A stretch of DNA of 64,000 nt from Prorocentrum cordatum (taxonomy: Eukaryota). Positions 19,321-64,000 of this stretch are shown here, piece by piece; the first letter of the stretch is position 1, and each line of letters starts with the position of its first letter. The notes under the pieces are model-generated. The model did no database searches, was not told the origin of the DNA, and saw only the letters and a program-made list of their open reading frames with translations. A program made the translations under genes and the position numbers. Location: positions 1 through 64,000 of the forward strand of contig CAUYUJ010000302.1 of the NCBI GenBank assembly GCA_963575745.1. Reading direction: 5' to 3'.

Positions 19321-19719
19321 TCAGGCAAGCGGAGGTAACCACCGAGTCAGGAGGGAGGGCGGCGGGCATTTGCCGCCGGCCAGAGGACGAGGAGAGAAGA
19401 CGGGAGCTCACGAGCTGGCTCCAGGCTGACGAGAGGCGCCGGCAGGAGTCTGCGAGGAGGGGTGAGCAGCGCGGCGGCATGCTGCCGGGAGGGCGGGCGC
19501 AAAGCTTGCTTGACGACCCCTACCCAGACGTGCTTCTTCTGCGAGTGGGGCGTGACCCGGATGGAGGCCCGCAGCGCTGGAACGGGTGCGGGAGGAGCTG
19601 CGCTCGCTTGGGGCACGGCTGGGGCTGGCGCTGCTGTCGGACGTGCCGTAACACGGATGGCGAAGCCCATGGGCTTTTTTGTCAGGCCCAACATGAGGAC
19701 CTCCAGAGGAGGCAGAGGG

Positions 19720-19935
19720 AGGCGGGCTATCGCCCACCGGCGAGCGAGGGGGCGAGTGGCAGCGGTGGTCCTGGAGCTCAAGCAGCGGGCGAGGAGGCAT
19801 CGAGGCACCCCCCGCCCAAGGCGGCGCAGGCGGGCTATCGCCCACCGGCGAGCGAGGAGGCCAGTGGCAGCGGTGGTCCTGGAGCCCAGGCAGCAGGCGA
19901 GGAGGCATTGAGGCACCCACCGCCCAAGGCGGCGC
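19720..19935 (+). repeat. 108-bp in-frame tandem duplication within the DIRS polyprotein
   Basis: AGYRPPASE(G/E)ASGSGGPGAQAAGEEA(S/L)RHPPPKAA occurs twice. Copies start at 19720 and 19828. Confidence 0.9.
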
Positions 19936-21698
19936 CGGGCGGCCGCCTCCCTCCCGTCTGGGAGGAGCAGCGGCCTGCGGTGGTGAAGGCACCGCCAAGC
20001 ACGGCCCAGGAGGGTCTGCGGCCCGAGGGGCCACCCGTCGAAGGGGCGCGGGGCAGGCTGGTGGGAGATGGAGGAGACCCACTGCTCAGCAGGAGCCGAC
20101 GCGCGGGAGGATCTGAGGATGAGAGCTGGGGCGATTGGACGGACGCCCACAGGGCGACGCGAGGTTGCCGAGGGGGTGGGGGATGGCGCCGGCGGTGCGG
20201 ACCAGGCCCCACCCCCCCCAGAGGCGAGGGATGCTTTGCGCCCGTGCCTGCTCCCAGGGTGCCCCTACTTGGAGCACTCCCAACCTGCGACCGCGGTCGA
20301 TGGCGGACCACTGTGGCGGCCAGGGTTCTGCTGCAACAAGTGCGCGGGGCGGTCGGAGGGAGCGGACTGGGCAGAAGGAGGCGCGAAGCACTTCAGGCAC
20401 TGCGAGAAGATGCCCCGCGGCCAGCCGCCCCTCGAGGGGGGAGGGCCGCCGGCGACCGCGGCGGCGAGCAAGGGGCGCAAGCAAGAGCGCAAGCAAGAGG
20501 TCGCAGAGGCTGCCGCCCGGGTGCTAGCCGCCGCCGCGCTGGCCGCCCCCCCCCCGGGGCCCGAGCCAGGAGCCGTGGAGGGGCGGGGTGAGGAGAGCGG
20601 CAGTGCCAGAGCGAGGAGCGCCCCCCCCCCCGTCACCGGGGGAGCTCGCCCGGCGGGCGTGCGCGGAGCGAGCGGCCGCCCGGCAGAGGAAGGCGGAGGC
20701 GGATCGGCTCAGGAACGCAGCCAGGCACCCAGGTGAGGGACAGGCGGAGCATATCCGCCTTAGGGCGAGGACCCCACCTGCACCAGCGGAGGTCAAGCAG
20801 GAGGAGGGGTCGGAGGAGGAGCCCCCGACGGAGGTCACGCGGGCGGTCGGTCAGACTTACCGTGCTCTCGCCCGGCGGGTGGATTTCCAGAGGACAGGGC
20901 TCTGGTCCGCCCCCGAGGAGGAGGGCCGCCCCAAGGAAGGGGCCGCCAGGGCGGAGACGCCAGTTGCCCACCCTCGGCCTGGCCGAGAGCCACCCCCGCA
21001 GCCAGAAGGGCGGGCCGACCGCGAGCCGCTACCCCAACCGGGAAGTTGGGCACCCCCTTCCGGGGGGTCGAGCGGGTCCGGCGGGCCGGCGAGGCCGCCG
21101 CAGCTCCCTGGTCACTGGGCGGAGGAGGACCCGCTCAGGCCAGGCGGACCCGCCCGAGCTGCCGAGGACGTGAGGGACCCCAACCCACCCGAATCCTACT
21201 CGGAAGGAGGATTCTGAGGGGGCAGAGGAGGAGGTTGACGAACTTCGGCCAGTGCCTTTCCCAGGTGGCGGCCCGGACGCCCGCTATGCGCGGTGTGAGT
21301 GCTGCGGCGTGCAGGTTGAGGGCCGGGACATGGGCTGCCCGATGTGCAACCGGACCTACCCCATTTCGATGGCGAGGGGCCGGTCGTTGGCAGCACAGAG
21401 GGCAGCCAAGGCAGGGAGCGCGGCCGCGGCCGCGGCCCAGGCGGGTCGGGCGCGGGCGCGCGCGCGGGCCCCCGACCGAAGCCCAGAGGAGCGCCGTGAG
21501 GAGGAGGAGGAGAGGACGCCTCCACGGGCGGTGGCGCGGACCGCCCGCGGCCCCCCGGAGGGCCAACCGGGCAGGCGTCCTCGCACGCCGCGCCGCGCGG
21601 CCCACCGGCGAGGGGGAGGAGAGTAACGTGAGCGTGAGGAGGTAGCACTGCGCGAGGCACAGGAGGCTAGGCCGCCCGAGGACATCGACCCGGAGGCG

Positions 21699-45458: not shown

Positions 45459-46014
45459 GCGCCATCGCCAGGGAACGGAGGATGGAGGAGGAGGAAGAGG
45501 ATGATCACAATGACATGGCAGCGCTGCCACGAACCGTATAACATGTGTGAGGGATGTTTGGCCCGGGTCACGAGAAGGGGGAGAGGCAAGATGCGACGAC
45601 AAGCACAGCAAGGTATTGTCTGATAGGAATGGCAGATCAGGGGGACAACATTCGAAGGCAATCGGTGCGGCGATGCCCACACAACCACAAAACGGTATTT
45701 GTTGGATGCAGATGGTTGGCGAATCTGCATGGAATGCGCCGTGAGTTTCACATGTGTGTATGGCCATTGGTCGCCACGAGGTGTTTTGTTCTCATAGGGA
45801 TGGAGGGCCGATAAAAGGGACGATGGAAGGGCGGATTGAGCGATCGTTAACATTTCGAGAGCCACGCGAAGGCACTACGATCGCAAATATCCAGTTGCCT
45901 GTGGCATGACCCGCCACCGTGCCAGCCCAGCATTCTAGGTGGCGACGGTTCTAGGTGACACGGGAGGCCGTCACGTGTGGCATTTCGTGCGGCCAGGGTT
46001 AGAATGGTCGTGTT

Positions 46015-46368
46015 CGTGATGATGGTGATGTTGATGGTGATGATGATACTCATTGTGGTGATGTGGTTGTTGATGTTGTTGCTTATGTGATTATGGTCAT
46101 GATGTTGACGATGCTATTGTTGATGATGGTTGGTGATGAGGATGTTGATGGGATTGGTGATGAGGATAATGGTGCTGATGAGGATTGTGATGGTGGTGAT
46201 GATGGTGATGATGGTGATCATAAGGATGTCGACGATACTGTCCATGGTGATGATGTTGGTGACGATGCTGGTGGTGATGATGATGCTGATGGTGATGGGG
46301 GTGCTGATGCTGATGGCGATGGTGATGGTGGTGATGATGTTGTTGTTGACGTTGATGATGATGATGAA

Positions 46369-46417
<49 letters not shown>

Positions 46418-46514
46418 CTGATGGTGATGGTGATGTTGATGTTGTTGATGACGATAATGCTGATGATTATGCAGATGGTGGTGGTGGTGATGCTGACGAC
46501 GTTGGTGATAATGG

Positions 46515-46554
<40 letters not shown>

Positions 46555-46850
46555 ACTGATGATGATGATGATACGGATGATGATGAGGATGATGGTGATG
46601 AGGATGACGACAATGCTGATGATGATGCTCATGGTGGTGGTGGTGGTGCTGACGACAACGATGATGCTGCTGATGATGGTGGTGGTTGTGGGTGGTTGTG
46701 GTGGTGGTGATGCTGCTGCTGCTGATGTTGAGGATGTTGATGATGATGAGGAGGAGGAGGAGGAGGAGGAGGAGGAGGAGGAGAAGGAGGAGGAGGAGGA
46801 GAAGGAGGAGGAGGAGGAGGAGGAGGAGCAGGAGGAGCAGGAGGAGGAGG
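46015..46850. repeat. (GAT)n followed by (GAG)n low-complexity tract
   Basis: Directly visible. Confidence 0.95.
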
Positions 46851-46954
46851 ACGGCCATCACATGCGACACCTTTCGTCTTCACCTCTATTTGAGGAGCTC
46901 TCATGGAACTCGTCGTTCGTGACGTCTTGGGGCTGTATTAGCCTCCTGTGAGGC

Positions 46955-47370
46955 AGTCTTGGGGGTCCATTGGGGCCGTCTTGGGCCGACTTGGGGTTTT
47001 TCTTACGCCGACGTGGGGCTCTCTTGGACAATCTTGGGGCCGTCTTGGGCCGTCGAAAGGCCTTCTAAGGCTATCTCGAGCCCCACGGGAGGCCCTCTGT
47101 GGCCGTCTTGGGGCCGTCTTGGATGCATCTTGGGCCATCGTGGGACCTCTCGGGCCATCTTGGGACCCTCGTGTAGGGGCCTTCGGGGCCGTCTTGGAGC
47201 CATTGTGGAGGCTTCTTGGGCCGTCTCGAGCTGACGGAAGCCCGAAACGGCGAGAATGCGAAAACCATTCTCCAACCAACCGGAACTCAATGAGTTTGGC
47301 TTCTTTGGGCCCTGTTGGAGGTCCTCTTGTGGCCTCTTTGTGCCCTCCTGGTAGCATCTTGGGCCGTCTT
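46955..47370 (+). repeat. GGGCCGTCTT(G) degenerate minisatellite
   Basis: More than 12 copies of GGGCC(G/A)TCTTG. Confidence 0.8.
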
Positions 47371-49300
47371 GAGTGCCACATTCGGCCGCAATCTCAAGCA
47401 TACTACTCTTAGCCCTTCTCTCCCCTCTTCCCTCTCCGGTCGGACGAAAGGGGGCATGTGGAAAGGGGCGGGTGCAAAATCGGTTGCACGTAGCTTGGTT
47501 CGGCCCAACCGCCAGGCGCCTCTCCTTGATGGCGGCTCCCAGCGCAGGGAGGCGCTTGGGAAACCCGCTGCGTGAGCTGATTCGCTAACCCTCGGTGGCG
47601 ACGCTAGGGGCGAATAGCCCACGGGGGATCCGTACATGTATCCAGGACCTCTTATCGCCCATGTCTTTGACGAGGATCCCAGGCGAATGCATGTAACGCC
47701 TGCCCCTGGTCTATCCGCCCCTAGCGTCTGGCTTGGCCCGAACCCCTCTACTGCCTCCATTCTGTCCGACCTGGCCCTTTGAGCCGACCCCCGGTGCCTC
47801 TCCCTGCGGCTCGATCAGACCAGGATCATCTCGGGACCGCTCCAGCCGCGGCGACGACGCGCCCACCTCAGAAGGCCCACAACAGGAGGAGGGGGAGGAG
47901 TAGGAGGAGGAGGAGGAGGAGGAGGAGGAGGAGGAGGAGCAGGCGCCAGACGGTTGAAGAAACAAATTTTGCAACAACAACGTCCGAACAGTAAAGAATT
48001 CACTTCCCCCTTCAACCCCCTGGTCTTGACATAGTAAATCAATGCGCTCGGGTCCAAAATGTAATCGTTCCGACTCTCTGGAAACGCTTTTTCAAGATTA
48101 AGGCCGGGGTCGCGGGGGGGTTATGCGAAGTGGGTCCTCAATTTTAGTTGCAAAGTTCTCTTTTCAACATGATGATGGAGAGGAGAAGGGCAGTAGCCAG
48201 GTCCCACGGGTCAGCGAGCCCCGCCCATTCCCTCCCTCCCTCCCGCAGCTTAGCACTCAATGGTGGCGCAACTTGAGAATGGGGCTGGCGCTCGTTTCCC
48301 CTAGCGAAAGGCCCTTTCGCGCGGCCCAGCTTCCGCCGACCTGGAAAGGGCGGGAAACGATGGCCACGCATGGGCGGGAAATGAAGTTGAGAAATCCTTG
48401 CGCGACGCTGGGGCGAGAAAACCATTTAGCCTTCTCTCGGGCGGCCAAATTTCCGATGAACGTGTCGAAGACGAATCATGCGTCGCACCAAGATGGCGCT
48501 GCCACTTTCACGCTCAAATGCTGCGGCGCATGGGCGAGGTCCAGAATTTCGACCGTTCTCGGCGACCCACATGGTTCGGCGACCAAAACAATGCGCCGCG
48601 CCAAGGCGGGGTCACCGAGTGGTGGCAATACTTGCGCAGAGCTTGGGCGAGGGCGGCAAGTCGCCCGCTCGCGCGCCTATGCGGCGCCGAGGTGAGAGCG
48701 ACACTTTCGCCCGCTCGCGCGCGACCCCGTCATCGACGGATCGGCGAGCGAAAATGCACGCCGCGCCCAGGCGCGGCGCCGAGGCGAAAGCTTAATTTAA
48801 TTTTCGCGCGGGATGTGCGCCGTCCCATTCTTGCCACGCGTTTTGAAATGTCGACACCAAAACGTCCATATTGAGCAGAACTCCGTCGGCTTTAGTTATA
48901 TTCCCTGATCGCGTTTTGCAGAAGGGTTCTGATAGAGGTAGAGCAGGACCACAGGAGAATTCCAGAAAAAGGGGACGGGGAGCCCAAGGACGTTTTGTTT
49001 GGCAGCCCTTGCGGCAGCCGTTTCGCGTGAGATGTTCTCCCACTTTTTTGGGGAACCGTGCTGTCGTCGCAATGACGGCTACATTTTTGGCCGGGACGCC
49101 TGCGATTTGTTTGGGCTCTCCACAACAAGCACGAAGCTCGTTACATTCATGTTGGCGTGTCGTTCGTGGGTCAAAGGCGGACAGGGACCACAGAAGGGTC
49201 CCAAAGGGGGACGGGGAGCTCGAGGCCGCCCAGTCTGGCAGCTGGTGCGGCGGCCGTTTCGCCTAATTTGTCCTCACATTTGTTTCAGGAAACGTGCTCC

Positions 49301-50033
49301 TTGTCGCACGGCCACGATCCATTGTAAAAGGTGGTCTACGCGACCCGTTGCGCAAAAGCACTCGGGTGCACATGGACGTGATCCTCTCGCCCCTGTCACG
49401 CGGCCACGATCTCTTGTCACAAATGAGTCACAGTGCACATGGCCGTGCTCTCAACCTTGTCACACGGCCACGATCCCTTGCTACAGAAGTGCACTACGGT
49501 GCACATGGCCGTGGTCTCACCACTGCCACACGATTACGACCCCTGGCAAAAAGTACATTGCGGTGCACATGCCCGTGCTTTCACCCGTGTCCCACGGCCA
49601 CGATCCCCTGCAAGAAACCAAACTACAGTGCGGAATGCCATGGTCGCACACCTGTCACATAGCGACGATCCCTAGTAGCAACATACAGTGCGTACGGTGC
49701 ACATGGTCGTGGTCTCACCCCCGTCGCACGGCCACGATTTTTTTGTGTACAGACCACGCACACGGTTTCTTTGTGTACAGACCACAACACGCACATTCAC
49801 ACGCACACACGCACACACAGCACACACACACACACACACACTACGGTGCAAATGCCGTTGTTCTCACTCCTGTCACACGGCCACGACCTCTTATACCAAA
49901 TACGTTACGGTGGTCACACGGCCACGACCCTTTGTACGGTGCGCATGGCCGTGGTCTCACCCCTTTCACATGGTTATGCTCATTTCTCAGAAACTACGCC
50001 GTTGTGCACATGCCCGTGCTACCTGTCACGCTT
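49301..50033 (+). repeat. ~65-bp-period array of a palindromic ~48-bp unit with more variable 16-21 bp linkers
   Basis: Consensus GTGCACATGGCCGTGGTCTCACCCCTGTCACACGGCCACGATCCCTTG at 49366, 49433, 49499, 49563, 49628, 49697, 49846, 49939 and 50004, plus partial copies. Internal stem TGGCCGTG/CACGGCCA. Confidence 0.85.
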
Positions 50034-50542
50034 AGGGATCCTTAGCAACACGTGGGAATGCACGTTTTACCTCCACCAGCCGACCTACTCCTCGATTCGT
50101 GTCTTCACCTTTGCTGCTATGAGGGTGCTTTGGTGGGGTAGTTTTTCGGTCGGCAGGATGGAAAGGCCGTATCTGGTCGCTATCAGCCAGCTTTGTGGCT
50201 GAGTGGGAGTATATACGTATATGGAATGACGATAGAAGGAGGAGGAGCAGGAGGAGGAGCAGGAGGGGGAGGAGGAGCACGAGAAGTGGGGTCATTGGAG
50301 GAGGAGGCGGAGGCAGAGCAGGTCGTGGACCAGGTGGAAGAGGAGGAGGAGGAGAAAGAGGAGGAGCAGGTTGAGGAAAAGGAGTTGGAGCAGTAGCAGC
50401 AGGAGGATATAGGGGGGAACGACAGCGTCCCAGCTTCGAGCCGCTCCTGCTCGCAACGATACCGCTTCCGCTCCTTCCTCTTGAGCTCTCTCCCCTCGGT
50501 CCCTTCCGCCCCCCCTTTGCGGCAGCGCCGCCTCCCGCCCAG

Positions 50543-50578
50543 GAGAAGAAGGCCGTGGTCGAGGAGGAGGAAGAGGAG
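50543..50578 (+). CDS. RPLP2: 60S acidic ribosomal protein P2, acidic tail exon (EKKAVVEEEEEE)
   Basis: CAG|G acceptor at 50541-50542, phase 0. KK followed by poly-Glu fits the P-protein tail. Putative GA donor at 50579. The terminal hydrophobic 'xFxLF' exon was not found in the window. Confidence 0.7.
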
Positions 50579-50965
50579 GACCGTCCGCGCGCCGGCGGCC
50601 ACCGCCCGGCAGAAGCCGCGGCGGGCCTTGGCAGAGATGGCGCGAGGTGGAGGGGGAGGTCGTCATGAGGGGGCCAGGTCTTGGAGGTCTTTGGCCGTTG
50701 TTGGGTTCCCCAGGCCCTCCCTGGTCCATGGGCCCTGGGACCGGCAAAGAGCAACTCATTATGAAGAGCCGGTCCCGGGGTAAGGCCTTGGTGTTCAGGA
50801 GCCATCTCTCTCAGAGACCGCCTTCTTCATGCGAAGTGAGGATGAGGAGGATGAGGATGATGAGGAAGAGTGAGGAACAGGAGGAGGAGGATCAAGTGAC
50901 GACCGCCGCCGTCGAAGTCTTTTCAGGTGCGAACCCGTGCGCTCAAGAGTTCTGCGGAGCCATAA

Positions 50966-51119
50966 TGGTTATGGAACAGAGGCGCATCAGCAGCCGCAGC
51001 GTCTATATCGGGACATCTTCAGGCCCGACACATCACACGGCCCTCGAGGCCTAAACTGCATCACGGGCCCGCTAGGGCCAAACATGGAAAATGGGAGACG
51101 ATCGTAGTGCATTTCAACA
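50966..51119 (-). repeat. Candidate 3' LTR (154 bp) of the Copia element
   Basis: On the minus strand, purine-rich GAGGACGGG is followed by TGTTGAAA... and the segment ends ...CCATAACCA (TG..CA). There is no second copy in the window to confirm it. Confidence 0.35.
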
Positions 51120-54100
51120 CCCGTCCTCGATCGTCTGGCTACATTAGCTGGCCGCGCGGCCAGTAAAACATGGATTGCTGCTGCCTGGCATCACACTCAC
51201 CGTTCCGCCCATCTGGCTGTTCCCTCGGCTACCCGCCTGGTAGCTACTGCTCTCGAAGGTCGCGGAGGCTCCGTTCTCGTTGTCGCTCCTGGAATCCATT
51301 TTGATCGTGGCGTCGTTGTGCTCCAGGTTGCTCTTTACTTCCTTCCTGCGCTTCCCGTCGGCACGCCTGTGTCTCGTATCTCTGATCGCCTTCTTGGTCG
51401 ACGCGGCCTCGGCACTGACCTCCACGCTCGCGAACCCGTTCTGCATTACGTCAGGCAGGTTGCCTCTCTCGGCGTCCAGCTTCCTCAGCGCGTCGGCCAG
51501 CTGCACCGAAGTGTCGCACCACTCCAAGTCAACCCCATTGCGACATTAGTTCGCGAAGTGCCGTGATGACCGCACGAACCCGGCGATCGGCAACTTGTCC
51601 AGAATTTGCAAATAGATGAGAAACCAAGCTGTTGGCGTCGTCGTACCACTTTACCGGTATCAAGTATGCCGCGTCCTCCACGAGGTCGCCCAGCGTCTGG
51701 TTTGGAACGCTCGTCTCGTAGTACAGTGCCCTTATCCACTCCGGCGCCTCAGCTCCTCCTGTGAGTCCGTGGGCCTCGGCTCCCATGGACGCCTTGCACG
51801 CCCGCTTGATGCGTGAACTGCCCCAGTCGAGGATGTGCACTGGTCCCTTCTTGTCGTCGTACAGGCCGTCGTCCGTCAGTTAGCGCACGAACCCGAGCTG
51901 CGATCTCACCTTCTCGCTGAGCTCGCCCAAGGTAATGTCGCCCACGTTGTTGAGGCTGCCGTCCGCGAACACAACCCCACGAATATCTCCATCGTCATAT
52001 AGCACGTCGCCTCGAAAGAGTATGTAGGCGTCACGCGCCCCTGGCAGTATTCACGAGCGTGTTCGTCTCCACCAGGTGCTGCACCGTGAACCAGTTTTTG
52101 TTCTGCGCTCGCCAGCTGTAGCCGAAGGAAACGTCCATCCGCAGCTGCCGAGACGGCCACCCAAGCGAGCCAGTCACCGACTCGACGCAGATCTTCTCCT
52201 CGTCCGTTGCCAAAGCCTTGACCTGGTTAACGCAGGCTGGTAGTAGCCCGATACCCTCCATGGCGTACACGAAAAATTGCCATGCCGATCTTGATAGAGA
52301 AGTCCGAAACCAGGTCCACGTCCTCCCCGCAGTACCTGAAGGGCGGCCTCTCCTCCGTTAGCAGCAACGCCTTTTTCAGTTCGTCGGTCGTGTCCTTGCG
52401 CAGCTTGCTCTTCGGATCTCCAGTCGCGAACAGGTCGTCCACGTAAGTGCCGACAAGGCCGACTAACTTGCCGTTCTCGAAGAGTAGAAGGAAGGCGCGC
52501 TCCAAGCGGCTCTCCTGCCACGAGTTGCCGCGTAAAGTCCTGCGCGGCTTGCTCCGCCACTTCCACCCAGCGCCCTCGGCGCCGTAGATCGCGCCGCAGC
52601 AGATTAATGGCGATCCTTCCGGTGCGCCAGGCGGCAAAGGGGAAGGTGGACGTAGCGCCAGCATCCGGTCGACGTCGTCGCCTTGGAGGTAGGCGCTCGC
52701 CGTGTCAAGCTTGAAAAGTGGCCAATGCTTCTGCGCTGCCGCACTGCAGATCAGGTGGAAGACCAGGAACGAAGAGGTCGGGGAGTCTGTCCGCGCGCGC
52801 GCCGACTCGTGGCCACCGGCCGCCGCCAGTCTCGACTTCGTTTTCATCCCGAGGTTCGGGTCGAACTCTGTTGTTGGCATGTGCCCACCTCGATGGAACG
52901 GGCTTGACCTCCTTGAGAAGCTCCTTCGCGTCGTCGCCGGAGACCGCGGCGACCGCCCTGAAGTTCTTCCATTTGTCCCACTCTGTGGCCGCGCTCGCGT
53001 CGAATAGGACCCTGTCCGCCCTGCCGGGCCTTCTGCTCCGCGACCTCCTCGTCAGCCATGCGTAGATGATCCGCGCGCGGGAGGAGTCAACCGCGTTGTT
53101 CTCGGCGGAGAACTTGGCCACCTGCGACGGGGCCCGGCCCAGAACGCCTCGAAGCGGCCCCCAGAGGGCCATGGGCAGGCAACTCGCCTTGAACTTCAGG
53201 CTCGAGTCGGCCGCCAGGAGCAGCAGACTGATATGCGATTCTGTTGCTTATATAAAAAAGTCACCAAAGCATCGCCATCATTTGCGTCGCGTTCAGTCGC
53301 CACTTCTTGCTCAGGCAGCCGTTCATGGAATGGTTCGTGTTCCTGGGCTGCCTCCGCGGCCTGGATTCTCCGGCGCGAGGTCCTCGCCGGGCTGCGCCTC
53401 CGACGGGCCCGCGCTTGGGTCAAGAGGTAGCGGTTGGGCCTTCTCCGACTTGTCGGGGTTGATGCTCTGGCCCCGCGTCTCGTCGGTTGCAGGCTGCGCG
53501 CTTGTCGCTGACCTCGGGGCCGTAGCGGTGGGCGGCGACGCCGCAGGTGGATGTGCTGGTCGCGGACCACATGCAGGAGCCTCTGTGGCTCTCTCTTCCA
53601 GGCCTTCGCGACGAGCGTCGAGAAATCGTCTGGGCCCCTTTGGAAGAGCTGCTTCTCGTTGACCATGCGGCCCCAGGTGATGGGCTCGCCCTCCGTCGCG
53701 AACCTCAGCTGCTCAGGCCTCCCAGAACCGTCCCGCCTCCACGCCGTAGCCAGATCGCGCGAGGGCTAACCTGGGTGGCTGCTGGCCGCAGAGTCGCCTC
53801 GACCCCGTCCGCCATCTTGTCGGGGCCCCAGAAATCGCGGCCGTTCACGCGAGCGTCGCCGCGCCACCGATGGAAGAGTGCAGGTGGCTCTCCTGGTCGG
53901 ACGCGGGCGCGTCTGAAGTGCGCGCGCGACCCCGCCAGGCGCGGCCCCCTCGCAGGCTTCGATCTCGCCAGCTTCGCTCTCCTCACGCGGTTGTCGCTGC
54001 CCTGCTTAGCGAAGGCAACCCTGGCGGATTCACGCCGCTACAGGGCGGCTGCCGTCGCGGGTTCTAGGTCGAGCGCGGCCTCGTGGACGTTCAGCTTCTC

Positions 54101-54848
54101 AGACTCGCCATCTTGCAGGGCTGACCCCGGCATGCGTCGGCCGCGAGCCCCGAGCGCCCTGTTCGCGGGCGAGTAGCCGTCGAAGAGCACCGACTCGTTG
54201 CGAACCTGGTTGGCCATCGCGCTCACGCACCTCAGGTCCTCGCCCTTCGTGACTTGGGCGTCTTGCGCCACCCGATGGAAAGCCTCCTTCCAGATGCCTC
54301 CCGTCCGCTCGATGCGGCCCATCTGCTCGCGGGCCCCCAGTGCCGCGTTCTCGGCCTCAACCCCGTTCTCGAACATGTGGGCGAGGAGCTCCTTGGCGAA
54401 CTCCTTGCCGCGACCCGCAGAGATGGGCTGCGGCAGCCCGGCCCAGCTGGCCAAGGCTGTGAAACACGCGCCCAGCGCGACCATGGCCGAGGGGGCGAAG
54501 GTGCCTTTGTGCAGGTACCGAACCACTTGGAACTGTCCGCCGTCGCCCGCAATGTTCAGGAACGCGCTGGCGTTGCCCTCGGCGTCGCGGGCGAACAGGG
54601 TACCGGGCATCGCGTGGTAGTTGAACTGATAGCGGCCTGGCACCCTCGCCAGGCGGACGTGCTTCGCCCCGATCATTTCGCCGCAGGCGTCGCGCCTGAA
54701 GTCCCACACGGCCACGGTGAACTCGCACCCTCGCCCCCGAGCGGCGCATGCACCGCGCCGACGTCACGTTCGCGGGGCGGGCGACATGCACGCGCATATT
54801 TCGAATGTCTTGCCTGGCGCAGGGGTCGAAGGAGAGCCGCCGAGCGCG

Positions 54849-54860
54849 TCTCTCTCTCTC

Positions 54861-54907
<47 letters not shown>

Positions 54908-55060
54908 TTTTTTCTCTCTCTCTCTCTCTCTCTCTCTTTATTTGTCTCTCCCTTTCTCCTTCCCTTTCCCTTTCTCTTTCTCTTCATTTTGTTTTGTGGT
55001 TTCTTTCTTTATTTATCATTATCTTTCTCTTTCTCTTTCTCTTTCTCTTTCTCTTTTTTT

Positions 55061-55109
<49 letters not shown>

Positions 55110-55130
55110 CTCTCTTTCTCTTCCTCCCTC
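54849..55130. repeat. (CT)n/T-rich tract interrupting the Copia pol region
   Basis: Directly visible between the MTase-like and integrase regions. Confidence 0.92.
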
Positions 55131-58100
55131 CTCTTGCGATAGTATGGGCCCCGGTCCTGCAGCGGCTTCAGCGCGAGCTCCTGCGGCGCCCTCGGGGGCC
55201 CGTGGAGCTCCGCGTTCAGGCGACGCCCGCCCTTGTCCTGAGGCCCGGCCTCAGTTGGGTGATCCGCCTCAGGTCGCTGTTCTTCTGCCCCCTTACGCTT
55301 CGGCTGCTTGCCGCGCCGCCCCCCCTTCTTGACCGCCGGCCCCTCCACGGGAAAACGCTCCATCATGTTGGCGCGGACTTGCTCGTCGACCTCCAGGGCG
55401 ATTCGCTGCTCGATGGCCGAGAGGATGGCGCGGCCCAGCTCATCGGGCCACTTGGTTGCGGCCCTGTCTTCTTCTCGTTCTCGAGCGGCGCGTGCTCGTG
55501 GGAGCGGTCGCACTTCGCGCTGTAGATTGCCTCGTAGATGGCGACCGACGTGGTCGAGCCCCCCTGGGCCTGTAGCGCGGGCCGCCTGTAGCTTCGCCCC
55601 TGCAGCCGAGTTCGCAGCCGCGTGGAGTGCACTCCATCGGGGCGCCGTCCTCTATGAGCCCCCTGGTCCAACTCGATTCACCGCGACTTGATCAGATAGA
55701 GCGAGCAGGGGCCCAGTGGCCTCCTGCGCCTCGAGGACGGTCGCGGCTGCCGCGCCTCCCCTGGAGATGTTGCACCTTCCCCAATCGCCCCACGGGCCGC
55801 AGGGCATGGTGATGATCGTCAAACCGGATCCTCCTCCAAGAGCTGGCGTCAGGCCCCCTGCCTGCCCTTGCGCGCGGCGCCGTCCCAACCGCTCTCGAGG
55901 TCCAGCGGCTGCCCGCAGTCGCAACCGAAGCTGGGGCTCGCGGGCATGGCGATGCCGAACTGGCCGCGGAAAAATTGCCTGAGTAGCGCCGCCCCCCTGG
56001 GGAGTTGCCCGGCGCGGGCGGCCGCGCCGTTCATCGCGTCGCTGGTCCGCATCTCGACGGTCTTCATGTCCTCGCGCATCGCTTGAACCTTCTTCGCCCC
56101 CCCAGAGCTCGCCATCCGCCGGGGCGGGTCGTCGCCCCAGTCGATCATCTTGGGATCCTCGAAGACCTCGTCGATCTCCGCTTTGGTGCTGACCTCGCTG
56201 ACGTGCCCGTCGATGACCTCCGCTGCGTCGATGACGCCCGCGTTGATTCCGCGACGAGTAGGCCCGTCCTGCTCGAAGTAGACCTGGGACCTCGGATCGA
56301 ACAGCTGAGGATCTGGGAAGTCGAGCAGGTTGACTCCCAGGTGGCCACTGCCAGTGCGGACGAGCGGCACGTCGCGCGCGCCGATGGCGTTGTAGTTGGC
56401 GACGCTGTTCGCCATGTCAATGACCCCCGAGCTTGGACCGCGTGTCCTCGGAGATGAGCATGTTCGCCTCCTGGCCGAATTCTGCGGACTCGATCGTGAA
56501 CGCGCTGCTGGCGATGCCAGCTGGCATCTTGTATACCGCGTCGCTGCATGCGTCTCCGCCGACCCCTCGGAACATGGTCTCGCGCGACCTCGGAATCGGC
56601 TCGGGGTCCCTGGCCCGCAGCGCCTCCCTGTGCTTGATCCTCCAGAGCGCGCCGTGCATGGTCATCTGGCAGGCCGCGTCGAGCGCCGCGACCCCGGGCG
56701 CGTTTCCGGAAGCTGAGCCAAACACGTCTTTGGCCTCCGCCGCGTTCCCGACCATGCTCACCTGGGAGCACCCGCCCTCCTCCGGGGACCGGGGGCCCCG
56801 CTCGCCGAGCGCCATCAGGTAGATCGGGAACCGCGCCAAGGGGTGCTGGTCGACGCTGAGCCTGGACGTGTCGCCGGCCATCGCGGACCTGATGAGGGAG
56901 TTGCCGCGGGCGCGTGCCCCGGGCCCGCTGTTCGCGAACTCCGCGAGCGAGCGACCTCTGAACTTCCCGACCTTGGTCTTCTCGCCGCCGAGGGGGGCGC
57001 GCTCCGCGTCGAGCCCCCTGACGTCCTGGTCGAAGTCCGCCGGGTACGCTACGAACGCGCGCTCCTCCGACTTGTCCTCCTCGCGCGAGTATTCCTCGGC
57101 GCTCGGTCTCTCGCCCAGCTTAGCTTCTCGTCGTCGGGCGGCGACTTCACCTCGCGCGCCTTCTTGGTCGCCACCTCCGCTGCCGCGCACTTCGCCTTAG
57201 GTGCGGTCTTCGCCGCCCTGCAGGCCCTGCCGGGCGACCTCCCCATCTCCTGCGCCGGGGCCTCATTCGGGTGGCTGGCCCTGCGCTACGGGGCGAACAG
57301 CGGCGATGCCGCGACGCACTTCCAGAGTTGCCATCCGTCGGCCCGGCGCGCCCTGACCACGTGGATGCCGAGCTGGTCCGCCAGGCGCCGGCGGCGCGTC
57401 AAGCACCGCTGGGCCCCGTTCGCGCCCTTGAACAGCCTGGCGCCCGCCTTCGGCGCGCGCGCGCGCAGGGGTTGCCCATGACGGGGAGAGAAGGCAGTCC
57501 AGCCGCCCCGTCGCCTTCGCCCGCGCTGGCCCCGAGCGTCTCGTCGCCGGGTTGCGCGCCCCGCCCCGCCTGCGCCTCGGGCCCGGCCTGCGCTCGCGCT
57601 CCGAGCCTGGGGCTAGTCGCCGCCGAACTCGAGGGCGCTGCCACCGCGAACGCCTCAGCGACCCTGACGTCGCCGCCCTCGGCCTTCTCGTCGCCGAAGT
57701 CGCTGAAACTGAAGTAGCTCGACTTGGGGCGGTCCGATGGCGGCGGCGCCGCCTTGGTGGACTTCGGGCGAGCGGGGTCGCCATGTCAGTGCCCGATCCT
57801 GTCACGACTGGCGCTCCGCGTAGTCCTCTTCAGCTTCTCGATCCTGGGCCTCCTCTCTGGGTCGTCGCCGCCCTTGCCGCCGCGGCTGCGCGGTCGGCCC
57901 CGCGAGCTCGCTGACGAACCCGCCGAGCGCGAAGTGGTCCTGCCGCGCGCCCTGCCGCGGCCCTTCGATTGAAACTTCAGCATGTGCTGCGCGATCGCCG
58001 CGGAGCTCTCCAGCGCCTCGTCGTCCATCTGGTCGAGCTCCTCCATGCTGGCTCCATCCTCGCCTAGGTGGACCTCGGGCGCCGACGCAGCGCGGAGAGC

Positions 58101-59836
58101 TGCGCCCCCCCCCGCCGCCCTCCTCGTCGCCCTCCTCGATGCCAGCCGGCCGCGCCTGAGCTCGAAATTGATGCCGACGTCCTCCGAGACGCCATGGCCG
58201 AGCGCCTCCGCGTTGTTCGCGGTTCTTCCGATGCTCGCGTTCGTGGATGTTCGGGCGCTGCGCCCCCAGGGCCTTGGCGAATGCGTTCTTGCGGCGCTGG
58301 TTGCCCGCCGAGCTGACGACGCGCGCGCGGTCGATCTCCTCGACCCCCGAGAACTTCAGCGGCAGGTGCGCCTGGCGCGTGATGGTCGTCGCTGATCGTC
58401 GCGTTCTCATTTGCCTTCTCGAGGTCCTCGAACGCCCTCGAGCGCCCGGCGATGCGCCCCCGCATGCTCTCGCCCGCGGCCCTCCAGACCGACTTGTCGC
58501 ACGGCGCGCCGTCGAACAGCTCCGCCGCCCTGACCGGGCGCCCCTTCGTCGCGGACTCTCCCAGCGTCGTCAGCAGCAGCTCCAGTCCGGCCGCGTTGGC
58601 CCGCTTCTTCTCGTAGCTCGAGCCGCCTTCGCCGCTCTCGACCGCCTCGGCGTCGCAGGCGGGCAGCTGCGCGCGGGTCGGCCCCCGCGCCGCGTCGTTC
58701 AGAGCGAGGAAAAGCACATGGACACAAGGGGTTTTACGGGTTTTACGCCGGAAAGGGGCGTCGTTGAGAGGGCGCCCGGCGCGGATGCGGGGATCGGGGT
58801 GGCGTCGGCGTCTGGGGGCGGCGGTTTGCGCGGCAAGTGCGTTTAGTTTTGACGATCTCTATATCCCTACATGAGGGGGTGGTGAAGAATAAATTCAATT
58901 AGCATTTATATGACTTTAAAGAAGCTTTAGTGCCATAGTCTAAAATATGCTTTAAGTGAGTTAAAAAAGAGTAGATAATAGTTGAATTATGAGGTGGAAC
59001 GTTATTTTTAACCTTGGTATACGTATATATACCACAAGGTACGCAGTAGCGTTATGACGCATCACCTCTCGGTGTGGACCGTCGGTGTTCACGTTTGCTC
59101 ATCCTCCTGCGCTCCTCCGTCAGTGTCCTCCCCCCCCTTCGTCCTCCCCACTAGTTCAAACTACAAGTCCTCCCCCTCCGAATTGCAGCCTCCTCCATTC
59201 TCCCTCGTTTCCGCGTCCTCCGTTCTCCCTCGCCTCTGCGTCCGCCCCCGCTCCGCTCGTTTGCGCTCGCCGCCGCCGCGCGCGAGGGCTTTGGCCCGAG
59301 GGGGCGCGGCCCCCGCGGCCGCGGCCGCGCCCCGCAACGGCAGAGAGGGGGGGGACGGGGGGGGGCGGAGAGGAGGGATGAGGGGGGCGGAGAGGGCACG
59401 GGGGGAACGAATGGGAGGAGAGAGGGGGGGGGTAGGGGATGGCGTTAAAGACGACAGTTCCTCCCCGTCTGCCCGTTCCTTCCCCTCCCCCATCCGTCTT
59501 CTTCCCCCCCCGCTCCTCCTGCCCCCCCTTCCTGCCCCCCATGTCCCTCATATCGTGTCCTCTCCCCCCCTCACCCCCCGCGCCGCGCCCCCCCCCCCTA
59601 CCCGGTGCCCTTCCCCTATCCACCTTCTGTCCCCCCTTCCCTCCTTCACCCTTTTCCCATCCTTCTCTTTTTACTGTGGCCTCGCCTCGTCCCTCTACGC
59701 ACTTGCCTCTCCTCTCACTATGGCCTCGCCTCGCTTCACCTCGCCCCTCTCTCGTTTTCCCCTCCGCCCATTCCCTTCCTCATATTCTGCCCTCGTCTCG
59801 CTGCTCCCCCTTCTCTGCCAGCACGCGCAGCCCGCG

Positions 59837-62800
59837 ATGGCGGAGGCTGGGTGGGGCGACTTGGCGTCGCTGGCGGCCCCCACCCAGCCGCGCGCCGCAG
59901 CGGGGGCGGCCGCGGCGGAGGCGTGGGGCGACCTCGCGTCGCTGGCAGCGCCAGCGCGGCCCGCGGGCCCCGCCCCCCTGCCCGCGGCCGCGCTCGCGGA
60001 GCCGCCGCCGACGAAGCGGAGGAGGGGCCGACCTCCCAAGGAGGTCCTGGCGGTGGTGGCGGTTGAGGCGCCACCGACGCCTCAACAGGTGCATCCGCGG
60101 CCGTCTGATCAGAGAGTGCTGCGCCTCCGTGAGCAATCGGTGGTTCTTCGTGGCACGGGAGGCTTGATGAACATTGTGCCAGCCAGGTTTTCGGGCTTCA
60201 TGGACGCGTCGAGCCTTGCGCGCAACTTTGGCGCTGCTCTCCAGTTAAGCCATGTCGATGCGGACTCGTGCGTGGACGATGACATGGCGAAAGTTGCTGA
60301 GTTCGTCCTCTCCAGCGGCCCTGCTCAATCCAGGCTGCTGTCCAATGCAGCGCGGAGCGACAAGTTGCAGATGGACGCCAAGAAGGTGACCCGCTGCGTC
60401 GCAGTGCTCGGCGCCTCGACTTCCATCATGGATTCCTTGATGCAGGCTGATATTGAACGATATTTGGCTGTGACTGTTCCCTCGGATCATCTTCACCAAT
60501 ATGCTGAATTTGCTGCGTATGACGCCGCCGACTTCAGCGCGACGCTGAGGGGATCTGCTTCGATACTGGGCTTCACCACGTCGCTGCCAGCGGGGTCCAC
60601 CGAGAGCAGCATTCGCAGCGCGGCCTTGGTGGCGCCGCGTCGCGTGCGCATTGCTGTGGAGGCCCCGACGTACAGCGGCATTTGTAAGACGATGCAGACG
60701 AAGCTACGGTACAGCATGCTTGTGACGATGGACGATGTTCTCACGATAGTGGTGTATGCGAAATCTGCGTCCCTCGGCCTTTTGGAGCGTGGGACTGGTG
60801 AATGCGTGGCATTGAGTCAGATACGAGCTTCTGGGGCGACTGCTTGGTCAAATCATTTCAAGTCCTCGGCCCGCTTCGCGATGACAGACGGTGATCTTAC
60901 AAACGAGAAGGGGGAGCGCATTGTTGGGCAGCAGCGAAACTGGGACCGTCACAGGGAAACTTGCGGGAGCCACCTCATCTCGACGTCCTACAAGAAGGCA
61001 ATGGCCCCCCTGACTGCCAGCTTGCGGGGCATGCTCAACCACCAGCTCAGCTTCCAGATGACGGGTGATATGATGTGCTGGCAGAAGTGCATATACGATG
61101 ACGTGGAGGAGAGGTGTTTGATCTTGGAGGGCAGCTGCTCGGATGAGGCATCGCTCCATCGCAGGCTTGTTCTGCGGACTTTCTGCAGCTCGAGTGAACG
61201 CTCCAACGTTATGAGCAAGGTATTGTTGTCCACCCTCCCCAACGGCGACTGGAGGCGCTGCGATCACGTGTGCTACCACGTCGCCGACCTCGGCATTGAT
61301 GAGACGGACAGACACGCTATAGTCCATGTGCTGGCGTCTGGTTTGAGTACGGCTTTGGCGCCACACATGCCGACGAGGTATCAGGAGGCTAAGTGGTGTC
61401 GCGGGGAGGTCGCCACGGACGAGACGGCCATCGGAGAGGCGTGCCATCGTGTGTTCTCGTTCGCCTTCAGGCGCTACATGCTGGCGCACGGGCACGCGGT
61501 CGGCGCTCTGCCCAGGGGGCGAGGGGGGACAGATGCGCTGCGCATGTCTGTTCGGTCGCAGGCTCAGCCAGGGCATGGCGACCCACCGATTGCCGACGGT
61601 GAAGTCGCGGAGGCGGCGGACTTCACCCCGAAGCACGATGCCGAAGATGGCGCCATCAAGAATGCACGGTTCAGGAAGGTTGCTTGGAAGTGGTGGTCGT
61701 GCAATCCTCTCGGTCTTCTCGTGCTGCAGAGGAACGCCATGGAGTGCCTCAGGGCCATGCGGGACCACAACTTCTACCTCAATGGCCCTGCGTTCGAGCG
61801 ACGCCAGACTGCGGAGGCCGCTCGGAAGATACAGGCAGGTTCCACTGACCTTCTGGTCCGTGATTTCGCACCGCTGGCATTGGCGCGGGGCGAAGTGGGT
61901 GAACTTTGTTATGACAAGCTGGAGCGGCTTTTTACTGTTGATGCCATGTGGATGTGCATGCCCGACGATTGCTTCACCGTCGAGTTCAGGGCTCTTTCGT
62001 TCCAGGTGTTATCTCGATTGGGGTGCGCAGTTGAATATCTTTGGAGGGTTGAGCGACGAGGATTTCCTTGGGTTCTTTTCCTTACCTTGGAGCGGCCTGG
62101 GACGAAGGATCGAGTGAGCAAGATGTCCCAGCACCTGATGGACCCAATATCTTTGAGGATCATCACCGACCATCCAGACCTTCAAGGTGACCTGTGCGAT
62201 GCCAAGATCTTCGCCTTTATGTTGAAGTGGCCGTGCGACAACGGACCGCAGGAGAGAGCATTCGCTCGGATCAGGAGAACAGTGGAGTCGAAATCAGCCC
62301 ACCTTCCGCAGATATCCTTCTCTGACATGTCAAACGAATGGATGTTCCAACAGTCCGCTGCCAGAGCATCGCGCCAACTATTTACTGACGAGTTGGGTCA
62401 GTCTACCGAACGCCGATGTCTTGAACCAGGAGACGGCAAGAGGTGGACTACGGCAGGTGGCGCATGGAGGGCATTTTGTAGGAAGAAGCTTTTGGCTAGC
62501 AGCGGCGTTGCCGACTTTTCCACATGGGCGGTTGAGTACTGGAACCTGCCCCCCGACGAGAAGGCCCAGCTGAAGGAGATCGGGGCATCTGCGGCTCTCG
62601 CGAATCGTTCCGGCCTGGTGACCACGAAGTCTTCATTCGGCCCGACGCCCTCCGAGGCTGGTCGGAAGGCGAAGCGCCAACAGTCGGTGACGGAGGCGAT
62701 CCAGAACGTTGGGTGTACTGAGGTCGAGCTTTGTTCGCGGATTCCGCATTGTCAGCTTCCGTCGCTGGATGAGGCGCTCACGTCGTGCCGCGCAGTGATG

Positions 62801-64000
62801 AGGGTCAAACGAGAGCGAGATCGACATTCGCTCCAGAACGACATCAAAGCCATTAACGATTTCAGAGAAGGCGTCGGCAAGAACCAAGTCGCCATGATGA
62901 GTGAACGCGCGGCAGCTCACATTGATATTGGCATGAAGTTCGTTGCCGTCCCTGCGTCTGGAAAGCTACGAGTGGTAGAGCCTTCCTATCAGGTATCTGC
63001 GGATATTGGTCGTGCTACGGCGTGGGCATCTACGAGGTACAAGTCCTCTGGCATGTGCTGCGGGCTGGAGGCCTTCAACAAGTGGGCGCACGATTTCATC
63101 ACTCATGCAGCGGCGCCAACAGAGCTCGACGGGATGAGGGGCAGTGAATACCGCAAGTGCTGTGACGCCGAGATGTGCATATGCGTTGGTCGGGGCAAGG
63201 ATCTGGCGAACCGCGTCGCGACGTTCCTCGGACTGGTGAAAGGTATTTGCAGCCCAGGGACTTCAGCACGATCGATGTTGGGCGATGGCAGGCTCGTGGC
63301 CGAGCTCATCGGCCATGGCCCCGACGGCCCCGACGGGGAGGACCTGAACTTGTACAGCTGGCTGCATTTTGGTCTTATGTATTGGTCGCCGTACCGCCCG
63401 ACCTTCATGGAAGTGGTGCCCGTGGAGCCGATTGAGGATCTGCCACCGAGAGACGACAGAGTCTACATCAAGGCGACGTGCCAGTTTAAGACATTGTTCA
63501 AGGCGCTAGACCTCTTGTTGGATTGCTCTCACTGGTCTGTTCGGTGGTACGTCCTGGAGCACTCGGGCAGGCCGATCGCGAACTTTTCGCCGTTGGTTGT
63601 TCCTGTGCTGCCTCTGGACGGCTATGCGGTGGCGCCTTTCTGGCCGCGCCATGGCGCGGCCGCGCGGGCCCCTGGACCTGGCGAGCACCACCTACCCGCT
63701 GCAGACGTCGAGGAATACATCGATGGCGTTGACCTCCCCGAGGGCGAGAGCGACCACGGGGGCGGCGACGCCGTCTGCGGCGGCCACGCCCACGCCGACG
63801 TGAGCGACGGCGATGATGAGCTCGATGACTTGATCGATGAGCTCGAGGCTGCCGCCGAAGTGGGCAGGGGGCAGGGGGCGGTAGCATCCCCCACTTGCTT
63901 CCCTTTCCTGTATCCCCCCCGTCCTCTCGTCTCTGCCTCCCGTCACCCCCTCGTCCCCGCCCCCCCTTGCTCCTGTCCACGCCGTCCTGTCTCTTGTAGC
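59837..64000 (+). CDS. Large stop-free ORF (at least 1388 codons, runs off the window): putative hAT-like (CxxH-type) DDE transposase with AT-hook and HMG-box-like region
   Basis: Hand translation from ATG 59837 shows no stop up to 64000. Motifs: KRRRGRPPK (AT-hook, ~60014); EFAAYD229; FAMTD351GDLTNEKGE; C376GSH; PTRYQEAKW; FPWVLF; DNGPQE806RAFARIRR; GGAWRAFCRKK..FSTWAVEYWNLPPDEK (HMG-like, ~62456-62583); CCDAEMCIC; acidic tail. The last ~130 nt may be intron. Confidence 0.8.
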   Translation, partial: MAEAGWGDLASLAAPTQPRAAAGAAAAEAWGDLASLAAPARPAGPAPLPAAALAEPPPTKRRRGRPPKEVLAVVAVEAPPTPQQVHPRPSDQRVLRLREQSVVLRGTGGLMNIVPARFSGFMDASSLARNFGAALQLSHVDADSCVDDDMAKVAEFVLSSGPAQSRLLSNAARSDKLQMDAKKVTRCVAVLGASTSIMDSLMQADIERYLAVTVPSDHLHQYAEFAAYDAADFSATLRGSASILGFTTSLPAGSTESSIRSAALVAPRRVRIAVEAPTYSGICKTMQTKLRYSMLVTMDDVLTIVVYAKSASLGLLERGTGECVALSQIRASGATAWSNHFKSSARFAMTDGDLTNEKGERIVGQQRNWDRHRETCGSHLISTSYKKAMAPLTASLRGMLNHQLSFQMTGDMMCWQKCIYDDVEERCLILEGSCSDEASLHRRLVLRTFCSSSERSNVMSKVLLSTLPNGDWRRCDHVCYHVADLGIDETDRHAIVHVLASGLSTALAPHMPTRYQEAKWCRGEVATDETAIGEACHRVFSFAFRRYMLAHGHAVGALPRGRGGTDALRMSVRSQAQPGHGDPPIADGEVAEAADFTPKHDAEDGAIKNARFRKVAWKWWSCNPLGLLVLQRNAMECLRAMRDHNFYLNGPAFERRQTAEAARKIQAGSTDLLVRDFAPLALARGEVGELCYDKLERLFTVDAMWMCMPDDCFTVEFRALSFQVLSRLGCAVEYLWRVERRGFPWVLFLTLERPGTKDRVSKMSQHLMDPISLRIITDHPDLQGDLCDAKIFAFMLKWPCDNGPQERAFARIRRTVESKSAHLPQISFSDMSNEWMFQQSAARASRQLFTDELGQSTERRCLEPGDGKRWTTAGGAWRAFCRKKLLASSGVADFSTWAVEYWNLPPDEKAQLKEIGASAALANRSGLVTTKSSFGPTPSEAGRKAKRQQSVTEAIQNVGCTEVELCSRIPHCQLPSLDEALTSCRAVMRVKRERDRHSLQNDIKAINDFREGVGKNQVAMMSERAAAHIDIGMKFVAVPASGKLRVVEPSYQVSADIGRATAWASTRYKSSGMCCGLEAFNKWAHDFITHAAAPTELDGMRGSEYRKCCDAEMCICVGRGKDLANRVATFLGLVKGICSPGTSARSMLGDGRLVAELIGHGPDGPDGEDLNLYSWLHFGLMYWSPYRPTFMEVVPVEPIEDLPPRDDRVYIKATCQFKTLFKALDLLLDCSHWSVRWYVLEHSGRPIANFSPLVVPVLPLDGYAVAPFWPRHGAAARAPGPGEHHLPAADVEEYIDGVDLPEGESDHGGGDAVCGGHAHADVSDGDDELDDLIDELEAAAEVGRGQGAVASPTCFPFLYPPRPLVSASRHPLVPAPPCSCPRRPVSCS

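Follow-up and report, generated by a model that had tools for sequence, protein, structure and literature searches.

A 64,000-nucleotide stretch of Prorocentrum cordatum DNA (GenBank assembly GCA_963575745.1, contig CAUYUJ010000302.1, positions 1 to 64,000; hereafter the window) carries on its minus strand the remains of a dinoflagellate-type Ty1/Copia retrotransposon, and this copy is a decayed, non-functional pseudogene. Between its protease and its integrase lie the remnants of an additional domain, here called domain X. In related elements domain X spans about 235 to 265 residues and is an integral, conserved part of the Copia lineage, whose layout is gag, protease, domain X, integrase, reverse transcriptase and RNase H (gag-PR-X-INT-RT-RH). 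Structure models predict for it the fold of the large, catalytic domain of C5 cytosine methyltransferases, and we consider a C5-methyltransferase-type fold and descent to be probable. The explanation that we favor for the whole, with modest confidence, is that the window holds a decayed copy of an element in whose intact relatives domain X would work as a C5 methyltransferase on the element's own nucleic acid.

The place of domain X within Copia Pol is best seen in its relatives. An in-frame piece of 190 residues from the window copy (56421-55852), used as a query, matched 26 proteins in a HMMER scan of 1.84 billion representative proteins. Several of these are intact, and the closest share 42% identity over 189 residues and 61% over 61 residues with the window piece. 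One of them, P0022 (1971 residues), encodes in order gag, a zinc knuckle, a protease with the active-site motif LDSGC, domain X, and an integrase made up of an HHCC region and a PF00665 core. When the intact domain of this protein (residues 1050-1320) served as the query, 48 polyproteins of 1088-2971 residues were matched, many of which carry PF00665 and/or PF07727, the only two families that the precomputed Pfam annotation shows among them. Source names are attached to a few of these polyproteins ('symbB' gene models and Effrenium voratum), and the taxonomic range given here rests on these few names. A local profile found domain X in 93 of the 97 stored relatives (P0002-P0098), and in dozens of relatives it lies in frame within Pol between protease and integrase. 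The original prediction had allowed that the domain might be a secondary insertion, missing from other copies of the family. Domain X was present in 21 of the 26 proteins matched by the window piece, however, and the remaining five were four short fragments and one unrelated ankyrin protein. Because all relatives that reach past the protease carry it, domain X is a part of this lineage's Pol and no secondary insertion. Its position between protease and integrase, which had been proposed from the window alone, is the same in the tblastn layout of the window and in the intact polyproteins. Beyond this family, a search among proteins of near-domain length with the domain alignment gave no free-standing distant relative, all 28 matches being fragments of the same Copia family; when bacterial and archaeal genomes were scanned with this alignment, 24 pattern matches came up, none of them confirmed, and tblastn of P0082, a nearly domain-only relative, against 50,697 phage records gave no match.

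In the window copy, domain X survives in broken form. Seven peptide strings had originally been read on the minus strand across frameshifts, and a three-frame reading of 55295-56010 recovered every one of them between 55421 and 55977. QFFRGQFG (55977-55954), PLDLESGWD (55908-55882), and CDRSHEHAPLE (55512-55480) share one frame; GCELG (55619-55605) and GGPRYRP (55586-55566) share another; and IITMPCGPWG (55816-55787), in which the motif IV-like Pro-Cys is retained, shares the third with WPDELGRAIL (55450-55421). We then searched all six frames of the window with a domain X profile of 279 positions, built from intact relatives. It matched at a single place, as five collinear pieces with a best E value of 3.6e-15, and the next best match elsewhere in the window had an E value of 4.7. 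Given five collinear pieces and no other match in the window with an E value below 4.7, these strings lie far beyond chance.

The five pieces, all on the minus strand, also document how the domain decayed. Piece 1 (55858-56010; profile positions 14-64, E 5.6e-6) contains the motif I-like FFRGQFG followed by PLD and GWD. An in-frame TGA at 55849-55851, located from the stop positions in the translation, interrupts the domain, and past it the frame of piece 1 continues as RQLLEEDPV (55822-55848). This corresponds to the family's ..L..EDPY stretch, which reads RRQLLEEDPY at the matching place in the relative P0003. After a frameshift, piece 2 (55670-55822; profile positions 77-127, E 3.6e-15) holds IITMPCGPWG and the helix that follows it. 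At 55670-55673 there is a deletion junction combined with a frameshift, where about 22 codons are gone; these are profile positions 128-149, which make up the motif VI-like RHVFxEQPxGS strand. The flanking profile alignments abut, one ending at 55670 and the other starting at 55673, so no bases of the R-H-V-F-x-E-Q-P-x-G-S segment remain, and the suspected deletion of the ExP motif VI from this copy is thus borne out. Piece 3, LIEDGAPMECTPRGCELGCRGEATGGPRYRP (55566-55673; profile positions 150-185), is weak alone (E 0.11) but collinear with the others; it was also found by tblastn with P0005 residues 350-387 and is the counterpart of the family's DGCxVGYxDxxSGLPHxKP hairpin. Piece 4 (55435-55557; profile positions 189-229, E 3.2e-4) follows a frameshift and includes CDRSHEHAPLE, and piece 5 (55295-55462; profile positions 225-278, E 7.6e-4), after a further frameshift, includes WPDELGRAIL, the C-terminal helix, and a basic tail.

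The assignment of domain X to the C5 methyltransferases comes chiefly from predicted structure. In the AlphaFold2 model of P0005, made with 48 relatives, 10-residue blocks over residues 221-450 have a mean predicted local distance difference test score (pLDDT) of 69-95, mostly at least 82. The model of P0082, made with 54 relatives, has a mean pLDDT of 85.4 and a predicted template modeling score (pTM) of 0.76. A Rossmann-type methyltransferase fold, on which the original prediction had staked the identity of the domain, appears in both of these independent models. Comparison of the P0005 model with the PDB by Foldseek returned C5 methyltransferases in 39 of 39 cases among the matches listed (best E 6.8e-4, probability 1.00), including DNMT3A/B/C, DNMT1, Dnmt2, M.HaeIII, and 3g7u. 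For the P0082 model the figure was 39 of 40 among the matches listed (best E 2.6e-4), including EhMeth, DNMT2, M.HhaI, DNMT3A/B, DNMT1, MET1, DIM2, ZMET2, and M.MpeI. Identity over the structural alignments was 8-19%, the highest value, 19%, being to M.HhaI. Against BFVD, the best 20 of the 50 matches listed comprised 14 named cytosine or DNA methylases, one named DNA polymerase, and five unnamed proteins. The best of these matches are proteins of 199-225 residues, headed by A0A0A0RJX0 (E 2.6e-6, TM-score [template modeling score] 0.63 by target length), with further matches to a Tetraselmis virus 1 protein (TM-score 0.55) and a Lactococcus phage P087 protein (TM-score 0.51, root-mean-square deviation [rmsd] 4.6).

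Within the models, the motifs of domain X are predicted to follow the usual C5 order on the usual structural elements. The first half runs from strand 1 through a glycine loop and a helix to strand 2, which ends in P-L-D, and then through another helix to strand 4, after which comes P-C-G-P-W. The second half starts with a long helix that leads to strand 5, which closes with E-Q-P; then come a further helix, a hairpin, and, behind R-T-x-Q-A-A-E-W-P, the C-terminal helix. In the P0082 model, T-x-P-C-G-P-W-G stands directly after the strand at residues 56-60, and E-Q-P lies at the end of the strand at residues 111-117. By its position in the fold, E-Q-P would be the equivalent of the E-N-V of motif VI.

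These positions are also the ones that the family has kept. In the Pro-Cys motif (T-x-P-C-G-P-W-G) the Cys is present in 75 of 77 relatives and the Pro in 74 of 77, and the Glu of the E-Q-P motif is found in 74 of 76, with five sequences reading E-H-P. The motif I-like F-A-G-Q-M-G has Gly at its third position in 78/78 relatives and at its sixth in 79/80, together with Phe in 71/78; the Asp of P-L-D is kept in 79/81. The conservation of the domain as a whole was measured as mean pairwise identity in 50-residue windows across 15 full-length polyproteins. Identity is 0.57-0.67 in domain X. The protease gives 0.55-0.63, the integrase 0.65-0.76, and reverse transcriptase with RNase H 0.52-0.83; in the linkers around domain X and the integrase the value falls to 0.21-0.45. 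At the protein level, then, domain X is conserved like the protease, integrase, and reverse transcriptase/RNase H domains, and clearly above the linkers.

A number of observations weigh against reading domain X as a C5 methyltransferase. Canonical C5 methyltransferases have a motif I of the form F-x-G-x-G-G. In domain X the fifth position of this motif is Met in 69 of 80 relatives and otherwise Leu, Phe, or Tyr, never Gly, and a side chain in place of this Gly could block the cofactor pocket. Of the motif I originally described as FxGxG-like, the F-A-G loop is there and its third and sixth Gly are kept, but the Gly at the fifth position is absent. Neither the Q-x-R-x-R of motif VIII nor the G-N of motif X is recognizable in the family alignment. 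Where the target-recognition domain belongs, there are only about 30 residues, from the hairpin of the P0082 model (strand 164-169) to the R-T-x-Q-A-A-E-W-P helix (201-206), and by these models domain X is without a target-recognition domain. The alignments behind the models are shallow, with an effective number of sequences (Neff) of about 2.4-2.6 for the domain segments. Against solved structures, TM-scores lie at just 0.13-0.45, with rmsd of 6-10 Å, and the structural match is therefore one of a shared core, not of the whole protein.

Sequence searches for a known family, likewise, did not connect domain X to the C5 methyltransferases. The Pfam model PF00145, the check that had been proposed for this domain, matched none of the window pieces, and no Pfam family matched the candidate region. 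It was equally silent on eight relatives, seven with domain X and one the unrelated ankyrin protein, at E values up to 1, and on all 19 domain segments at E values up to 10. The domain profile gave two chance-level matches only against all PDB sequences. Alignment by hhalign to the single sequence of Escherichia coli Dcm was not significant (probability 0.2), nor was alignment to a Dcm profile (probability 0.1, E 0.5), which was built from close orthologues only, at least 74% identical among the 120 matches listed. The non-significant path to the Dcm profile pairs the FAG loop with LFAGIGG and HPCGPW with FPCQPF. In a language-model search, the nearest Pfam-bearing cluster (score 0.87) has PF00145 on 35% of its members, which we treat as a lead only. 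PHROGs returned single weak matches only on the 19 domain segments, and matches to the Pfam family Cytadhesin_P30 were rejected, as they come from a proline-rich tail. Taken with the structural results, the original prediction of a cytosine-methyltransferase-like domain holds for the Rossmann-type fold and for the near-exclusive C5 matches of two models; it does not extend to recognition by PF00145, to close superposition on solved enzymes, or to a target-recognition domain.

We considered several other explanations for these data. One is that the strings are chance matches in decayed noncoding DNA, or that a piece of some host methyltransferase gene happens to lie beside a Copia remnant. It is true that no open frame remains in the window copy and that no family model matches it. 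Nevertheless, the five collinear profile matches fall at one place in 64 kb, and dozens of polyproteins contain this domain as an in-frame part of their chain, with the protease before it and the integrase after it. The relatives of the window piece, the 48 domain-bearing polyproteins, and the profile search of the window together refute this explanation, and we give it virtually no credence. A second view is that domain X belongs to some other Rossmann-fold enzyme, either a methyltransferase acting on a different atom or substrate or a cysteine-using enzyme that is no methyltransferase, and that its C5 likeness is superficial or made by the predictor. The low TM-scores to solved C5 methyltransferases would fit this view, as would the failure of any sequence method to tie domain X to PF00145, the one non-C5 methyltransferase (MtfA) among the 40 PDB matches listed for the P0082 model, and the adenine methyltransferase and two generic S-adenosylmethionine-dependent methyltransferases among the 50 BFVD matches listed. 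On the other hand, 78 of the 79 PDB matches listed for the two models, which derive from different query proteins, are C5 enzymes, although other Rossmann methyltransferases are far more numerous. Pro-Cys follows strand 4 and Glu-x-Pro strand 5, the places taken by P-C and E-N-V in C5 enzymes, and even the non-significant hhalign path aligns the same FAG loop and Pro-Cys segments. We consider this second view improbable.

The main rival to an active methyltransferase is a pseudoenzyme: domain X would descend from a C5 methyltransferase and serve Pol as a structural, oligomerization, or nucleic-acid-binding module without methyl transfer. The substitution of the fifth-position Gly throughout the family speaks for this, as do the missing target-recognition domain, the unrecognizable motifs VIII and X, and a divergence so large that none of the 19 segments is matched by PF00145. 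Residues with a purely catalytic role are nonetheless near-invariant, the Pro-Cys cysteine and the E-Q-P glutamate being lost in just two relatives each, and the cofactor-loop glycines are kept in all or all but one. Such tight retention is unexpected for a pure scaffold. DNMT3L, for comparison, is a pseudoenzyme that lost its catalytic residues. We regard a pseudoenzyme as rather unlikely on balance. For domain X as an enzyme, we believe that actual methyl-transfer activity is conceivable but somewhat doubtful.

If domain X is an active C5 methyltransferase, the following sequence of events may apply. In intact elements, the domain would be released from Pol, or be active within it, inside the virus-like particle. 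It would bind S-adenosylmethionine, and the Pro-Cys cysteine and the E-Q-P glutamate would serve the C5 methylation of cytosine in the element's own nucleic acid. The substrate would more likely be single-stranded, such as minus-strand cDNA, genomic RNA, or primer tRNA, than double-stranded DNA, because domain X has no module with which to read and open a duplex. The benefit could resemble that proposed for DIRS elements bearing a DNA methyltransferase (DNMT), in that new copies would arrive already bearing the methylation found across most of the host genome. In its fullest form, this proposal describes a Copia element with an active, minimal C5 methyltransferase that lacks a recognition domain, stems from a virus-type 'mini' enzyme, was captured independently of those in long interspersed nuclear element (LINE), DIRS, and Gypsy elements, and marks single-stranded cDNA or RNA in the particle before entry into an almost fully CG-methylated genome. 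The full set of these details is speculative, and we think it unlikely that all of them apply together.

Retrotransposons that carry DNMTs have been described before. According to de Mendoza et al. 2018 (PMC5890265), Symbiodinium has DNMTs in elements of the LINE and DIRS types, and Klebsormidium has one in a Gypsy element; the names given are SymbioLINE-Dnmt, SymbioDIRS-Dnmt3, and KnitGypsy-Dnmt3. The carriers named in the original prediction agree with this account. The same paper states that Copia is the most abundant superfamily in Symbiodinium and "lacks any DNMT domain", that retrotransposon DNMTs were detected by Pfam model in that survey, and, as a proposal for DIRS, that element copies reach the genome already methylated. 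A preprint of May 2026 (10.64898/2026.05.21.726589) gives SymbioDIRS-DNMT3, SymbioLINE-DNMT, and Gypsy-DNMT3 as the prior transposable element-associated DNMTs and adds EpiLTRs; the word Copia is absent from its main text. A 2025 paper (PMC12344493), in the passage that cites the 2018 work, speaks of DNMT3 members embedded in "LTR Copia and DIRS" elements (LTR, long terminal repeat). As these passages stand, its mention of Copia appears to mean the Gypsy case, and in any event a Pfam-detectable DNMT3. The mismatch between the two papers over the carrier of DNMT3, Copia in one and Gypsy in the other, looks like a naming slip. A full-text literature search, with paper supplements outside its scope, found no report of a Copia-borne methyltransferase or DNMT domain in dinoflagellates or Symbiodiniaceae. 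DNMT carriage by retrotransposons is thus already known from LINE, DIRS, and Gypsy elements, and what would be new here, if the structure models are right, is that the C5-methyltransferase-like domain has a further superfamily as its carrier and is both minimal and highly divergent.

As far as they are described in these sources, the DNMT-bearing retrotransposons (SymbioLINE, SymbioDIRS, KnitGypsy, and EpiLTRs) resemble the elements studied here in having a C5-methyltransferase-type domain within the element's own reading frame, conserved over many copies, and two of them share the host group Symbiodiniaceae with domain X. They differ in that the carrier of domain X is a Ty1/Copia element and the domain sits between protease and integrase. 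In addition, PF00145 does not detect domain X, which lacks a target-recognition domain and falls about 100 residues short of the normal length of a catalytic domain. DIRS and 'DAM-LTR' retrotransposons, in the passages of PMC5890265 and 10.64898/2026.05.21.726589 that treat them, likewise carry a nucleic-acid methyltransferase module. Theirs are Dam-like N6-adenine enzymes, however, whereas domain X shows the C5 signature, Pro-Cys and Glu-x-Pro, and has C5 structural matches. The Ty1-copia-like SmTCL elements of Symbiodinium (Chen et al. 2017, PMC5776459), for which reverse transcriptase, integrase, RNase H, and LTRs are described, are alike in host group and in having the integrase upstream of reverse transcriptase and RNase H; no extra domain appears in that description, and the comparison is with the description only.

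With the canonical C5 enzymes (M.HhaI, M.HaeIII, DNMT3A/B, DNMT1, and Dnmt2/EhMeth), domain X has its predicted core fold in common, and the features that follow the strands also correspond: strand 1 leads into a glycine loop, strand 2 into an acidic residue, strand 4 into Pro-Cys, and strand 5 into Glu-x-(Val/Pro), and strands 6 and 7 form a hairpin. It departs from them in its F-A-G-Q-M-G motif I, in the 30-residue helix after the Pro-Cys loop, in the lack of a target-recognition domain and of recognizable motifs VIII and X, and in an identity that does not exceed 19%. Closer in size are the short viral C5-methyltransferase-like proteins found in BFVD, namely A0A0A0RJX0 (210 residues), A0A2P0VN45 of Tetraselmis virus 1 (218 residues), and C3U2K5 of Lactococcus phage P087 (212 residues), with TM-scores of 0.51-0.63. 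Their similarity in size to domain X implies a catalytic core without a recognition domain; unlike domain X, they are free-standing and not within a Pol polyprotein. The short viral proteins in BFVD (about 200-225 residues, several unnamed) suggest that there is a class of C5-methyltransferase cores which lack a recognition domain and have been little studied.

Should domain X prove real and active, the most successful retrotransposon group of coral symbionts would also have epigenetic machinery, and the benefit of a DNMT to a retrotransposon could be tested in a second, LTR-type replication cycle. It would also mean that searches with family models have overlooked a whole class of recognition-domain-less C5 methyltransferase cores that is found in viruses too. 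Should it instead be a pseudoenzyme, domain X would still be a conserved, unannotated Pol domain of a major element family.

The element around domain X is identified as Copia, as originally proposed, by a Pfam match to PF07727 (RVT_2) at 52227-53051 (E 1.2e-11) in a search of the window and by the order of its parts on the minus strand, which tblastn with a full-length relative gave as protease, domain X, integrase, reverse transcriptase, and RNase H. The protease region of Pol (56423-56764) was matched by P0032 residues 709-819. Its active site, at about 56700, reads LDAAC in the window copy where relatives have LDSGC, a change which indicates that the protease, too, is inactivated in this copy. 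The N-terminal zinc-finger region and catalytic core of the integrase occupy 53723-54836 (P0005 residues 535-637 and P0032 residues 1393-1707, E 2.8e-50). Between domain X and the integrase lies a simple-repeat block of about 310 bp (54837-55148, repeat family D6; no strand assigned), composed of CT/GA dinucleotide, poly-T, and CTTT-type units. The Copia-type reverse transcriptase, split by frameshifts, spans 52040-53016 (PF07727 and P0032 residues 1979-2321), and RNase H with the C-terminal part of Pol spans 51348-51975 (P0032 residues 2344-2547). The damage to the window copy includes four frame changes, the in-frame TGA, the lost E-Q-P segment, and the microsatellite insertion in the element. 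No direct repeat pair that could represent flanking LTRs was found around the element within 46000-62000, no second copy of the element was found in the window by blastn of 50001-59500, and the first 708 residues of the full-length relative, covering gag and the part upstream, matched nothing upstream of 56764 by tblastn. The window copy is either old or truncated.

Elsewhere in the window, a stop-free frame of 1663 codons on the plus strand (59012-64000) is arranged head-to-head with the Copia remnant and runs off the window end. Its first 300 codons or so are proline/arginine-rich and of low complexity, and the rest resembles a real protein; it has no Pfam match, and a language-model search gave unnamed clusters only (best score 0.89). 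Another plus-strand frame of 1246 codons, at 16851-20588, is stop-free and has no Pfam match, and 17 further frames of 257-601 codons have no credible Pfam match, one of them showing a sub-threshold match to Atrophin-1. Long imperfect arrays of trinucleotide type (GAT/GGT, then GAG/GGA) with 9- to 15-base phasing, assigned to repeat families D1-D5, occupy 46003-46900, 47857-47971, and 50204-50444. Finally, about seven copies of a unit of some 45-97 nucleotides, spaced 64-149 nucleotides apart and 71-84% alike (repeat families D8, D9, and D11), form a degenerate tandem array at 49385-49980, just past the 3' side of the element.

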